The translations under genes were made by a program, and so were the position numbers. DNA of 64,000 nucleotides. It comes from Leucoraja ocellata. Taxonomy: Eukaryota. Below the pieces are notes generated by a model. The model saw only the letters and a list, made by a program, of their open reading frames with translations, did no database searches and was not told the origin of the DNA. Positions within the stretch are counted from its first letter, which is position 1; every line of letters starts with the position of its first letter. The stretch is taken from positions 3,596,001-3,660,000 of the forward strand of contig JAWMAR010000143.1 of the NCBI GenBank assembly GCA_036785375.1, given 5' to 3'. Of this stretch, positions 10,601 to 48,880 are shown piece after piece.

Positions 10601-11441
10601 TAGTGGTAGGGATTTTTGGATGGGCCTCACAGTCACAAAGAGAGTTAACTGGATGAAGAGAGACTATGGCTGGAAATGTGATAGAGCATTAAGAGTTCAA
10701 TGGACTTAAATTCCATGGAAGTCGATAGATCTGAATTTTGAAGGCATAATACAAAGCTACTTTAGCGTTATCGACCGGGGATAAATTCCTGCGTATACAT
10801 TTTCTTTGGAGCACTCCTGGATTTCCTGACATCAGAAAGATATATCTTTTAAAGAAAGCTTTTACATAAAGGAACTGTTGGGACCTCTTCTGGACTCCTG
10901 TTCTTTTTCCACTTTATTTACTTGAGAAAATCACAAAAGCTTCCTCACTCAGGCCAGCAGTTAAAACACTTATGGAAGTCTGTTGATCACTTCAGTTTTG
11001 AACTGCAGAACAATTGAAGGAACCTGCTGGCTTCAGATGGGCAGACAATACATATGCTGAGAAGGCTAATTGCAGTGTCATTATTAGAGATTTGATAATG
11101 GTGTCAGCATGTAAAGCCAAACAAAATGTTTGCTACTGTCAGCGGGAGCAGCCTTAAATGTATTGCTAAAGAGAAATGGTCAGATAAGCTCGTCCTTTAG
11201 GTGTAAGAGATATAATTTAATACAGGTAATTATGGGCTGCAGGACCTAATTCTTAAGGTAGCAGCTAAGATTCTGAATTGTTGATCCAAAGCCATTTTTA
11301 AATCCTGCCATGGTAGCGAGTAAATACTAATACGGATTCTTATATAAATCTCAAATTGCAAGACAAAACTCGTTTGAGTAACTGCAACCAAGAATCTTCT
11401 GGATTGAATCATTGTAAAAACCTCTCTGAATAACTAAATGT

Positions 11442-11570
11442 TTATGAAGGAACTGCAGATGCTGGAAAAATCGAAGGTCTGAAGAAGGGTCTCGACCCGA
11501 AACGTCACCTATTCCTTTGCTCCATAGATGCTGCCTCACCCGCTGAGTTTCTCCAGCATTTTTATCTACC
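11442..11570 (+). mobile_element. Short Penelope-tail-derived retroelement with a short inverted 5' arm
   Basis: gaaggaactgcagatgctgg joined to ctgaagaagggtctcgacccgaaacgtcacc...ctccagcattttt; degenerate flanking duplication ctctgaataactaaatgt / ctctgattaactgatgt. Confidence 0.85.
11475..11510 (+). ncRNA. Minimal type I hammerhead ribozyme motif
   Basis: Stem I AGGT (11475-78) / ACCT (11507-10); CTGAAGA box (11479-85); stem II GGGT-ctcg-ACCC; GAAA (11499-502); palindromic ACGT stem III; GUC triplet (11504-06). Activity is not shown by the sequence. Confidence 0.65.
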
Positions 11571-11619
11571 TCTGATTAACTGATGTACTTTAGGAAAGAA
11601 AATTTGCCATCGTCACTCA

Positions 11620-11935
11620 ATTGGTGGCATGGTGGATAAAACCAATGCTTCACAGTGGCAGAGACCCGGGTTCGATGCTGACCTTGGGTCCTCTTGGTGT
11701 GGAGCTTACCCATTCTCCCTGTGATCAGGTGGGTTTCCCACAGTAGCTCTGGTTCCCTCCCTATTCCAAAAATGTGCAAGTTGGTTGGTTAATTGGTCAC
11801 TATAAATTGTAGGTGAGGGGTAGGATCTGGGGGGAGCTGATGGGAATATATGGAGAATTAAAAATAACACAATATTGGATAGTTGGCATGAACCTGATAG
11901 GCTGAAGTGCCCGTTCCTATGGTGTATCCATGTCT
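11620..11935 (+). mobile_element. tRNA-derived SINE (V-SINE/HE1-like) with CR1-like tail
   Basis: A-box-like ggtggcatggtgg, B box gggttcgatgc, core tgtggagcttacccattctccctgtg...tgggtttccc...gctctggttccctccc, tail ggctgaagtgcccgttcc. Confidence 0.85.
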
Positions 11936-24382: not shown

Positions 24383-24618
24383 AAGGTAGACACAAAATGC
24401 TGGAGTAACTCAGCGGGACAGACAGCATCTCTGGAGGGAAGGAATGGGTGATGTTTTGGGTCGAGACCCTTCTTCAGACTGCAGAAATCTGAAAAGGGTC
24501 TCGTCCCGAAAAATCACCCATTCCTTCTCTCCAGAGATGCTGCCTGTCCTGCTGAGTTACCCCAGCATTTTTGTGTCTACCTTCAATTTAAACCAGCATC
24601 TGCAGTTCTTTCCTAAAC
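24383..24618. mobile_element. Fold-back Penelope-tail short retroelement with TSD
   Basis: About 95-bp inverted arms (24383-24480 and 24488-24583); TSD acggattcttct (24371-82) / atggattcttct (24619-30); both arms hold mutated hammerhead cores. Confidence 0.92.
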
Positions 24619-28703: not shown

Positions 28704-30358
28704 CAGTGCCCTCCGTAATGTTTGGGACAAAGACCCATCATTTATTTATTTGACTCTGTACACCACAATTTGAGATTTGTAATATAAAAAATCACATGTG
28801 GTTAAAGTGCACATTGTCAGATTTTAATAAAGGCCATTCTATTTTCATTTTGGTTTCACCATGTAGAAATGACAGCAGTGTTTATACATAGTCCCCCCCC
28901 CCCCCATTTCAGGGCACCATAATGTTTAGGACACAGCAATGTCATGTGAATGAAAGTAATCATGTTTAGTATTTTGTTGCATATCCTTTGCATGCAATGG
29001 CTACTTGAAGTCTGCAATTCATGGACATCACCAATTGCTGGGTGTCTTCTCTGGTGATGCTCTTCCAGTCCTGTATTGCAGACATCTTTTACTTATGCTT
29101 CTTTTGGGGGTTAGTCCCCTTCAGTTTTCTCTTCAGCATACAAAAGACATGCTCAATTGGGTTCAGATCGGGTGATTGACTTGGCCACTCAAGAATTGAC
29201 CATTATTAGCTTTGAAAAACTCCTTTGTTGCTTTACCAGTATGTTTGGGATCATTGTCTTGCTGTAGAATGAACTGCCGGCCAATGAGTTTTGAGGCATT
29301 TGTTTGAACTTGAGCAGGTAGGATGTGTCTATACACTTCGGAATTCATTATGCTACTGCCATCAGCAGTTGTATCAACAATGTAGATAAGTGAGCCAGTA
29401 CTTTCAGCAACCATACATGCCCAGGCCATAACACAGCCAGCACCTTGTTTCACAGATGAGGTGGTATGCTTTAGATCTTGGGCAGTTCCTTCTCTCCTCC
29501 ATACTTTGCTCTTGCCATCACTCTGATACAAGTTAATCTTTGTCTCATCTGTCCACAAGACCTTTTTTCCAGAACTGTGGTTGCTCTTTTAAGTACTTCT
29601 TGGCAAACTGTAACCTGGCCATTCTATTTTTGCAGCTAACCAGTGGTTTGCATCTTGCAGTGTAGCCTCTGTATTTCTGTTCATGAAGTCTTCTGAGGAC
29701 AGTGGTCATTGACACATCTGACTCCTGAAGAGTGTTTCTGATCTATCGGACAGGTGTTTGGGGATTTTTCTTTATTATAGAGATAATTCTTCTGTCATCA
29801 GTTGTGGAGGTCTTCCTTAGCCTGCCAGCCCCTTTGCGATTAGTAAGCTGATCAGTGCTCTCTTTCTTCTTAATGAAGTTTCAAACAGTTGATTTTGGTA
29901 AGCCTAAGGTTTGGCTGATGTATCTAACAGTTTTATTCTTGTTTCTCACTCATAATGGCTTATTGGACTTTCATTGGCACAAATTTGGTCCTCATGTTGA
30001 GAAAAAGCAATAAAAGTTTCTAAAGGTGATGAAAAGACAGGAGAAAGACTAGGTACTGAGAGCTCTCTTATACCTGCATTAAAGAGGCAATTAAATACAC
30101 CTGAGCAATTACAAATGCCTGTGAAGTTGTGTGTCCCAAACATTATGGTGCCCTGAAATGGGGGGGGGGGCTATGTATAAACACAGCTGTAATTTCTACA
30201 TGGTGAAACCAAAATGTATAAAAATGGCCTTTATTAAAATCTGACAATGTGCACTTTAACCACATATGATTGTTTTCTATTACAAATATCAAATTGTGGA
30301 GTACAGAGACAAATAAATAAATGATGGGTCTTTGTCCTAAACATTATGGAGGGCACTG
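28704..30358 (-). mobile_element. Full-length Tc1-family (IR/DR type) DNA transposon, inactivated
   Basis: TA TSDs (28702-03 and 30359-60); CAGTG...CACTG termini; TIRs of about 235 bp, each with outer and inner direct repeats (ccataatgtttgggaca-like); 1655 bp long. Confidence 0.98.
28966..29995 (-). pseudogene. Tc1 DDE (DD34E-type) transposase pseudogene
   Basis: ATG at 29995; HTH-like TVRYISQTLGLPKSTV and GRLRKT; catalytic WTDETK, QQDNDPKH and SPDLNPIEH; C-terminus KGYATKY*; several in-frame stops and frameshifts. Confidence 0.95.
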
Positions 30359-32519: not shown

Positions 32520-33010
32520 ATTTGAGTGGGCATTTAGGGGTATGCCACAATATTATTAGTTTGGACACAAAATGCTGGAGTAATTCTGTGAGACAGGCAG
32601 CATCTCTGGAGAGAATGAATGGGTGACCTTTCGGGTCTCGACCCGAAAGGTCACCCATTCCTTCTCTCCAGAGATGCTGCCTGTTCCGCTGAGTTACTCC
32701 AGCATTTTGTGTCCATCTTTGATTTAAACCAGCATCTGTAGTTCTTTCCTACACATTATTAGATTGGAATTACTTATGTGCCAGACTAGATAAAAACAGT
32801 AGGTTTTCTTTTGTCAGGGTATAGAAGTGACCTTGAGGAGTTGTTCATAACAATCCAGTAGTCCACATTACTGTTGCTAACTTATTATTCTAGATTTATT
32901 AAATTAATTGAATTTATTTCATCAGCTGCTATGGTGACATTTGAACTCGTTCTCTGAATCATTAGTTCAAGTCCTTGGATTATTAGTAAAGTAACTTCTT
33001 ACGCTATCAT
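32520..33010 (-). mobile_element. Old tRNA-derived SINE remnant interrupted by a fold-back element
   Basis: Minus strand: ttactaataatccaagg...gagttcaaatgtcaccatagcagctg...aattcaattaatttaataaatctagaat...ctactggattgttatgaac, matching a recalled shark/ray SINE. Confidence 0.6.
32562..32754. mobile_element. Fold-back Penelope-tail short retroelement with TSD
   Basis: Near-perfect palindrome centred on gggtc-tc-gaccc (about 32633-32644); TSD attattagtttgga (32552-65) / attattagattgga (32755-68). Confidence 0.92.
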
Positions 33011-47062: not shown

Positions 47063-47933
47063 TTCATTCCAAGAAACCAACTGTCCAGATTTCTATGTTC
47101 CTGTAAGGCTAATCCTGAGGAGTTAGCATGCTCCTCCATAGTGAGTAGATGGTTGTTGGTCTCAAAACCATTTTCTGCTTGATCCCCTTTAATTCCCTGT
47201 AGTTCACAATGGTTATCTGACCAAAGAAGTAGTTTAATAACAGAATGATACAACATAAACTTGCTCAATCCCTTGAAGTCTACACAGACCATCAAACATC
47301 TATTTCCCTTCATCCCATGTTCCCACGGTCCCATAAACTCCATGCCATACCCCCCTGATTCTACTCATGCACAAGAAGGAATTAACAGTGGCTAATTGCT
47401 TATCAACCTACATTTTTGATGCTGTGATTTTGCCAAATGCCTCATAGCATGTCATGTTTAGGATGCATCACAGTACTAAAAGAGGTGAATTAGCCCGAGG
47501 TGATTATGAAAGAATGAATCTTTAATCTAAAATACCTGCTCAACCAAGAATTATTGATTTGGATGATCAGCCAGAATCGGATGACATGGTGGAAGAATCC
47601 CCAACAGCTTAGAAAGATGAAGGTTTATTAGGAAACTGGGGAAGCAACTAGCTGCTGGTTTTGAGACCATACATCTTTCTCCAGAGATTATGCACCTGGA
47701 ATTGTACTTTATCTAATATACCCATGAATGACACTGAACAATGTTAATATATATAACAAGGGAATGCAACCCACTAATTTCCTGCTTTTTATATTCTGCC
47801 CTGAGGACACGCAGAAAGGCGAGCCAACCAGCTATCACTAGACAAATATTATGTCCATTGTTAATCTCTATGTCTTTCTTATGCTTCATATAAGTACCTG
47901 ACTAATTACATACTAGAACGATACTAGAATAAT

Positions 47934-48880
47934 GTAGACACAAAATGCTGGAGTAACTCAGTGGGACAGGCAACACCTCTGGAGAGAAGGAATGGGTGAC
48001 ATTTTGGGTCGAGACCCTTCTTCAGACTGATGTCGGGAGTGAGTGGTACAGAGATAAAATGTGTTCAGAGACAGTAATATTGGTGGGAAAACAGTGAAGG
48101 GGAAGGGGGAGGGGATGGAGACAGAGGGAAAACAAGGGCTACTTGAAGTTATTCAAGTGAATGTTCATACCGCTGGGCTGTAAGTTACCCAAGCGAAATA
48201 TGAGGTGCTATGCCTCACTCTGACAATGGAGGAGGCCCAGAACAAAAAGGTCAGATTGGGAATGGGAGGGGGAGTTAAAGTGCTGAGCAACTGGGAGATT
48301 AGGTAGGTTTAGGCAGACTGAGCGGAGGTGTTCAGCGAACCGATTGCCGAGCCTGCGCTTGGTCTCGCCGATATACAGGAGTCAACACCTGGAACAGGCG
48401 GATACAGTAGATGAGGTTGGAGGAGGTGTAAGTGAACCTCTGCCTCTCCTAAAATGATTTGGGGTCCTTGGATGGAGTCAAGGGGAGTGGTTAAGGGACA
48501 GGTGTTGTATCTCGTGCGGTTGTTGGGCAAAGTACCTGGGGAAGAGGTGGTTTGGGTGGGAAAGGACAAGTTGATCAGGGAGTTGCGGAGGGAATAGTCT
48601 CTGCAGAAAGCAGAAAGGGGAGGATATGGGAAGATGTGGCTGGTGTTGGGATCCTGGTGGAGGTGGCGAAAATGTTGGGGGATTATGTGCTGTATGCGAA
48701 GGCTGATGCAAAGATACAAGGACTCTGTCCTTGTTACGAATGGGGGGAGGGAGAGCAAGAGCGGAGATGCGGGATATCGAGGAGAACAATGTTCCAGCTT
48801 AATCATGAAAAATATAACGGGATAGAAACCAGTAGACATAATGTGTCGGAAGGAACTGCAGATGCTGGTTTAAACCGAAG
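47934..48880 (-). mobile_element. Penelope-like retroelement, 5'-truncated
   Basis: GIY-YIG coding remnant followed (minus strand) by a terminal repeat containing a mutated hammerhead motif (47994-48028); an additional tail piece lies at 48841-48880. Confidence 0.92.
48139..48787 (-). pseudogene. Penelope RT-linker/GIY-YIG endonuclease remnant
   Basis: Joined frames give RIQHII.QHFRHLHQDP.TSHIFP.PPLSAF.RD.SLRNSL...CPLT...SSNLIYCIR..CSRC*LLYIGETKRRLGNRFAEHLRSV...PVAQHFNS; frameshifted. Confidence 0.92.

Follow-up and report, generated by a model that had tools for sequence, protein, structure and literature searches.

Does a hammerhead ribozyme core that has kept all of its boxes, within a short retrotransposon insertion of the Leucoraja ocellata genome, mark a self-cleaving RNA, or is it an ordinary remnant of the element that brought it? 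The window analysed is the whole 64-kb stretch of DNA surrounding this core. The locus is very probably a terminal repeat (pLTR) insertion of a Penelope-like retrotransposon, carrying its family's minimal hammerhead with a 4-bp stem I made by the insertion seam, and as a lone copy it is unlikely to cleave. The genome contains tens of thousands of such stubs, and this one, lightly diverged, combines a familiar type of motif with a familiar type of insertion. The single locus matters little; taken together, the copies of the family document on a large natural scale how Penelope elements insert.

The hammerhead and the insertion that carries it

The motif occupies positions 11475-11510 of the forward strand. 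The 5' strand of stem I (AGGT, 11475..11478) was read from the letters, and its 3' strand (ACCU, 11507..11510) from the letters and the fold. Between them lies the minimal core (11479..11506), recognized from the letters, a descriptor and the published consensus, and made up of CTGAAGA (11479-85), a bulged A (11486), stem II of 4 bp with a CUCG loop (GGGT-ctcg-ACCC, 11487-98), GAAA (11499-502) and C-G-T-C (11503-06). The unpaired A11486 falls between positions 9 and 10.1, and G11487-C11498 is the G10.1-C11.1 pair. An ACGT palindrome (11502-05) is found where stem III would be, and the GUC triplet ends with C17 at 11506, after which the cut is predicted. The boxes, stem II, the 4-bp stem I and the palindrome are all found where the earlier note had placed them.

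The motif agrees letter for letter with the consensus in Fig. S3 of PMC4209133. It has the CUGANGA, GAAA and NUH boxes and a palindromic 15.2-16.2, and it is without helix III. The minimal hammerheads of metazoan Penelope-like pLTRs share this plan (CUGANGAH, a G...C stem II, GAAAN, the palindrome and NUH, with no helix III) and occur mostly as solitary copies, with some pairs on opposite strands (PMC4209133). Their helix I measures 2-6 bp in the published rows, a range that includes the 4 bp found here. What sets the present family apart is a short stem II, of 4 bp, and a stem I that natively measures 2 bp; this copy differs further in having its stem I made by an insertion seam. Canonical type I hammerheads in Rfam, in contrast, have a looped helix III and a 6-bp helix I and match the model; here no hammerhead family was matched at E values up to 10, either with the whole window or with 11400-11620, a silence that is expected since the motif has no helix III.

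A minimal-hammerhead descriptor (both core boxes, stem II, palindrome and NUH) run over both strands of the 64-kb window returned the single site at 11475-11510. Of eleven family segments displayed in the window, each of the ten others is either cut short or altered by mutation in its core, stem II or palindrome, so that the copy is, as had been claimed, the only one in the window with an intact core. Four of the others keep the CUGA box; as the same note had it, they are preceded by agt (24384, 47934 and 57345) or tgt (49244). In 150 random 64-kb sequences with the dinucleotide frequencies of the window the descriptor matched twice when stem I was ignored, and never when a stem I of at least 2 bp was demanded. 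A loose two-box pattern is not significant, with 10 matches against a mean of 5.9 and 11 of 100 shuffles reaching 10. As text the motif is beyond chance, yet it is expected for this genome.

Two further segments of the window are of unusual structure. That at 32569-32708 is a head-to-head palindromic copy with its seam centred on stem II and the CUGA box in neither arm, and was the source of spurious miRNA-family matches in the Rfam search. At 24384-24612 two hammerhead ends lie head to head a few bases apart, both cores being mutated and one arm carrying a tail.

The insertion measures 133 bp (11439-11571) and consists of an inverted 40-nt tail arm joined through GT to a 5'-truncated forward pLTR. 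It begins after a degraded left target-site duplication (11424..11437, forward strand), which is identical to 11570-11581 at 11 of 12 positions, or at 12 of 14 if lengthened two bases by eye. The inverted arm (11439..11478, reverse strand) consists, in reverse complement, of the final four bases of the pLTR and a Penelope tail of about 37 nt; at 38 of its 40 positions it agrees with the tail in native copy L110. Beyond the hammerhead the remaining pLTR (11511..11571, forward strand) runs to a tail-less end point which recurs in many copies; the pLTR of this copy has one mismatch at 42 invariant flank columns. The right target-site duplication (11570..11583, forward strand) overlaps the end of the element by its first two bases. 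The order is thus duplication, inverted tail, seam, truncated pLTR, duplication.

In its native context the pLTR has a pyrimidine tract and CAG before TCTGAAG, which gives a stem I of 2 bp, the letters in front of the core being CAGT. In the AGGT of this copy the AG comes from the inverted arm, and the GT is a 2-nt microhomology common to arm and native pLTR. The 4-bp stem I straddles a seam likely formed at insertion, which bears out the claim that the junction with the inverted arm completed it. The end of the pLTR, ACCU, coincides in letters with the 3' strand of stem I, and because the arm ends in the complement of that ACCU, the seam would have extended stem I from 2 to 4 bp by accident.

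The route of insertion we infer, rather than observe, involves two cDNAs. The element protein would prime them at two internal start sites, the tail end and the tail start, and they would be made on opposite strands of a staggered cut. One would have halted after 40 nt and the other at the usual spot just before the hammerhead, and the two would then have been joined through the GT microhomology. Insertion units of endonuclease-bearing Penelope-like elements of the Neptune clade have the same parts: a pLTR, partial tandems, an adjacent inverted 5'-truncated copy, a 30-40-bp tail at one end only, a target-site duplication, junction microhomology and a Cys-rich linker (PMC3846280; 10.1101/2021.04.23.441226). 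This copy differs in being cut down to the tail on one arm and to about 93 nt on the other. Animal non-LTR retrozymes, by comparison, are tandem hammerhead units, whereas here a single intact core is found in 64 kb and the insertion is bounded by its own duplication.

The parent element

Longer copies, walked upstream, contain an ORF that carries motifs of RT type and, after a Cys-rich linker, an endonuclease at its C-terminus. Three motifs read by eye in L141, L155 and L190 (LPKIHK...RPIVS, GVAMG and YIDD) we take to be of RT type. Between RT and endonuclease lies the linker CNRRKCYTC...FTC...YCIRCSRC (L137, L141 and L147). In L147 a stop-free stretch of 349 amino acids stands immediately 5' of the same pLTR; it has a Pfam GIY-YIG match (E=0.0032, below the curated cut-off, and the one hit among six fragments scanned) and Atlas matches at 0.95 that carry the HTH_animal and GIY-YIG families. 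The five other ORF fragments had no Pfam match at all, no fragment had one to an RT family, and a PDB search with the RT fragments gave none; the support from databases is thus slender, though consistent. A near-full-length element (L189) ends in the same pLTR, and tandem loci (L199, L203, L207, L214 and their duplicates) show ORF end, pLTR with hammerhead, tail and the next ORF in succession, an arrangement found in several of 30 loci carrying the ORF start. The longer and tandem copies link the pLTR to the RT/endonuclease element, to which it belongs. The published consensus and this link to an RT/GIY-YIG frame support the view that the hammerhead is of the Penelope type, as had been proposed.

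The clade is likely Neptune, judging from sequence; the assignment rests on motifs read by eye, since Pfam support for the RT is absent. The Cys-rich linker is a feature of Neptune which Nematis shares (PMC3846280; 10.1101/2021.04.23.441226). The likely start codon lies about 33 nt past the tail, within a donor-like AAG|GTATG. At the boundary of pLTR and ORF (L191-L220, e.g. L207:1445-1545) the sequence CATTTT(T)GTCTAC occurs just before the tail and again just after it. It thus adjoins both fixed ends of the element, and perhaps contributes to the signal by which the two internal RT starts are chosen.

The window itself holds a longer relative on the reverse strand (47931..48690), with a broken ORF end comprising a Cys-rich linker remnant, an LYIGET endonuclease motif and the C-terminus, followed by a pyrimidine tract, CAG and a mutated hammerhead core. 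On the same strand (47931-48870) a sense tail with a few post-tail bases lies about 150 nt upstream of the ORF remnant, an arrangement like a deleted partial tandem. Elsewhere, L200:884-1316 is a tandem array whose 66-bp repeats come from the 3' portion of a related pLTR and seem to lack the CUGA box.

Intact cores, seams and copy ends across the genome

A genome-wide search gave 85,114 intact-core matches, equal to 1.6 expected per 64 kb with assembly duplicates included. The counts are inflated because many loci occur twice. The members of such pairs (e.g. L140/L143, L151/L152, L252/L253 and L262/L263) have flanks about 98-99% identical and are probably uncollapsed haplotypes or segmental duplicates. 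In an unbiased sample of 600 kb in 60 stretches, 125 of 213 alignments span the core and 13 of these are intact, which corresponds to 1.4 per 64 kb. Intact cores are therefore common, and the suggestion that this copy stands out is not supported. Minimal hammerheads have been counted in thousands per genome, with about 4,000 in coelacanth and 9,000 in Xenopus (PMC4209133), against the approximately 85,000 matches here, assembly duplicates included. Cartilaginous fish appear neither in the Fig. S3 rows examined nor, by term, in supplement file 2 of that paper.

Excess conservation of the core across copies had been named beforehand as a test, and did not emerge clearly. In the unbiased sample non-CpG mismatches amount to 73/1304 (5.6%) in the core and 520/7490 (6.9%) in invariant flank (p=0.08), and CpG mismatches to 169/641 (26%) and 151/658 (23%), respectively (p=0.16). 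Since the rates are alike there is no clear protection of the core after insertion; domesticated solitary hammerheads in host genes are marked by conservation of the locus beyond neutral expectation, of which the family as a whole gives no clear sign. Compared with all non-CpG flank columns the core is somewhat more conserved (0.94 vs 0.89; Mann-Whitney p=0.03). Columns that vary between subfamilies number 0/10 in the core and 16/60 in the flank (p=0.10), the differences sitting at loop II, H17 and wobble positions and sparing the core boxes, and 44 of 62 flank columns are as invariant as the core. The weak core excess and the subfamily pattern fit selection acting in master elements only. Decay of the core after insertion is near-neutral, and the core of this copy is still intact, probably because the copy has diverged little and has so far escaped CpG decay.

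Of 83 intact copies, which all lie in a single 4.7-Mb stretch of C1, 13 were set aside as duplicates; in the remaining 70, stem I measures 2 bp in 56 cases and at least 4 bp in four. A 3-bp stem I is found in 6,093 intact cores (7.2%). Helices I of 2 bp are on record in elements of Drosophila, Culex and Oikopleura (PMC4209133). Exact copies of the native context number 2,273 genome-wide, versus 33 of AAGG, and of 15 AAGG loci examined only this copy has the tail seam. Its seam has 59 matches in the genome, less than 0.1% of intact cores. Thirty of the 59 were compared with this locus, and include several assembly-duplicate pairs; their flanks differ, most have duplications of their own, and they belong to more than one subfamily. 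Among the first 100 of 185 tail-to-core seams, 29 use the GT register, 19 the AG register, which leaves stem I unextended, and 52 other registers. GT is not clearly favoured over AG (p=0.19), and the seam that completes stem I thus represents one of several registers of microhomology.

Just before the core the 5' ends of copies are crowded together. Of the 112 copies still at risk in the unbiased sample, 78 end between -8 and +3, or 0.058 per nt as against 0.005-0.009 at +20 to +49. A scoreable duplication was present in just 11 of 165 copies of the old unbiased sample, and the duplication-anchored test was therefore repeated on the intact-core copies. There 32 of 70 end near C3, GT being kept in 28 of the 32 and AGT in 16; within a conservative interval of 24 nt the rate is 0.019 per nt, compared with 0.0025 further upstream. 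The enrichment just before CUGA is at least about 8-fold, on the understanding that local alignment blurs ends and that copies of rare subfamilies may be taken for truncated ones. No 5' end falls on the base that follows C17, and 4 of 192 come within one base of that position. Cleaved RNA was accordingly rejected as the template for insertion.

A pile-up before CUGA with none at the cut site suggests that the RNA begins just before CUGA and that the templates were uncleaved. The likeliest cause of the pile-up is transcription initiation at TCAGTC, which is initiator-like when set against the familiar Inr consensus. An Inr within the pLTR has been described (PMC2377424; PMC3846280). Competing causes are a protein block or a splice site at the pyrimidine tract and AG, or annealing at the near-palindrome TCAG-T-CTGA. 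The native upstream sequence does resemble a 3' splice site, with its pyrimidine tract and YAG and, in some subfamilies, CTAAC or CTGAC. No forward skip across the pyrimidine tract was seen among the 15 RNA joints listed, a further 153 being unlisted, and either candidate donor spliced to the core would still yield AGU and a 2-bp stem. A spliced form that completes stem I was considered and rejected, none of 345 core starts being joined to the ORF end or to the donor-like site after the tail. Upstream sequences in L031, L039, L074, L077 and L088 are unrelated from one subfamily to another, and all end in a pyrimidine tract and YAG; in several of those subfamilies the branch-point-like CTAAC or CTGAC lies a few bases before the AG.

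We propose tentatively, and with less than even confidence, that the RNA starts 2-3 nt before CUGA, that stubs of about 100-135 nt are complete copies of uncleaved RNA from the start to the internal priming sites, that the ribozyme is held inactive by the 2-bp stem I of native copies, and that insertion seams have accidentally lengthened stem I in several thousand copies. If so, the seam-lengthened copies would constitute a pool from which cleaving ribozymes in host transcripts could arise. The accessible parts of the Neptune-clade papers (PMC3846280; 10.1101/2021.04.23.441226) do not describe a strong pile-up of 5' ends before the hammerhead, and a literature search that left Repbase and most subscription journals uncovered found no report of this family or of such a pile-up. 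Ends that collect in front of the ribozyme and not at its cut site are relevant to the unsettled function of minimal hammerheads.

Folding, cleavage and the competing explanations

In the minimum-energy structure of the isolated 36-mer both stem I and stem II are formed. The pairing probability of stem I is 0.28-0.40 in contexts of 131-401 nt and rises to 0.95 in the 36-mer, as against no more than 0.05 in native contexts; that of stem II is about 0.65 here, whereas most native contexts give 0.01-0.05 and a single one reaches 0.5. By these predictions the seam makes this copy fold better than native ones. Two copies can be modelled as a double hammerhead, sterically nested, at -13.9 kcal/mol (-6.1 for the native 2-bp form), which is weaker than two monomers (-15.6) and than an inactive dimer with swapped stem II (-25.7). 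On these energies the active dimer is not the preferred form, and the folding z-scores of the motif are 0.1-0.6.

Single minimal hammerheads show no cleavage, and dimers little (PMC4209133). No partner core that could supply helix III was found on either strand of the 64-kb window. In the Poseidon element PAc of the green anole cleavage occurs only with the element's protein and is dispensable for insertion in vitro; reverse transcription begins at two internal sites that define the tail, and no RNA ends lie at the cut site (PMC11167929). PAc resembles the present family in its two fixed ends a tail length apart, its pLTR hammerhead and the lack of any sign of template cleavage, and differs in belonging to another clade and in having an ORF that starts at stem II rather than past the tail. 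A lone copy would thus likely not cleave itself. The earlier note's suggestion of a self-cleaving RNA is not supported: the window offers no partner, and published monomers are inactive (PMC4209133) or dependent on protein (PMC11167929).

RNA records listed none that contains the locus, which tells neither for nor against its transcription. Four RNA runs of a related species were mapped to the tandem copy L207. Family RNA is abundant on both strands; these are standard libraries, which speak for the family and not for the 11475-11510 locus. No pile-up of molecule ends was seen in them, a weak test with such libraries. The reads have loose ends at the same three places, reflecting the genomic copies of that species.

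Of the other readings, the least improbable, though we consider it unlikely, treats the match to a hammerhead as a relic or as a side effect of signals for promoter or splicing, with no ribozyme role even in the master element. It draws on the native stem I of 2 bp, which is not predicted to form, on the lack of copy ends at the cut site and on the many flank columns as invariant as the core. It has to contend with the published consensus, which is matched exactly down to the bulge, the G10.1-C11.1 pair and the palindrome, with subfamily variation that spares the core boxes and with the published 2-bp helices I (PMC4209133). For this copy the relic reading is compatible with the best explanation, namely a pLTR insertion with a seam-made stem I.

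More doubtful still is that the seam produced a working ribozyme, which would cleave as an intermolecular dimer or with the aid of protein when host transcription passes through it. All core bases are present, the 36-mer folds into both stems, the double hammerhead gains stability over the native form and family RNA is abundant on both strands in a related species, but the active dimer loses to the monomers and to the inactive dimer, the window lacks a second intact core, no host exon was recognized in the 150 frames between 1 and 31.5 kb, and no RNA ends accumulate on the tandem copy (in another species and in standard libraries, a weak test). Should seam-extended copies cleave after all, insertion would provide a simple way to switch on a latent ribozyme. 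Hardly credible, finally, is that the short form of tail, seam and pLTR is a non-autonomous element copied as a unit since its stem I is complete. The same seam does recur 59 times, and of the 30 loci displayed three (L256, L268 and L274/L275, a duplicate pair taken as one locus) repeat the arm end just before the seam. The seam is found, however, in more than one subfamily, as told by their different diagnostic bases, with most displayed matches outside that of this copy; neighbouring registers are nearly as common, and the seam accounts for a minute share of intact cores.

The search for a host exon ran Pfam on the 150 candidate frames, out of 159, that lie in 1-31.5 kb and revealed none, short exons being able to escape it. 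Its yield was two sub-threshold matches and one Tc1-type transposase fragment. The latter, on the reverse strand at 29548-29742, is of the Tc1/mariner type (HTH_Tnp_Tc3_2, E=1.2e-13). The window also contains, at 1199-1260, an AT-rich, near-perfect hairpin of about 60 bp.
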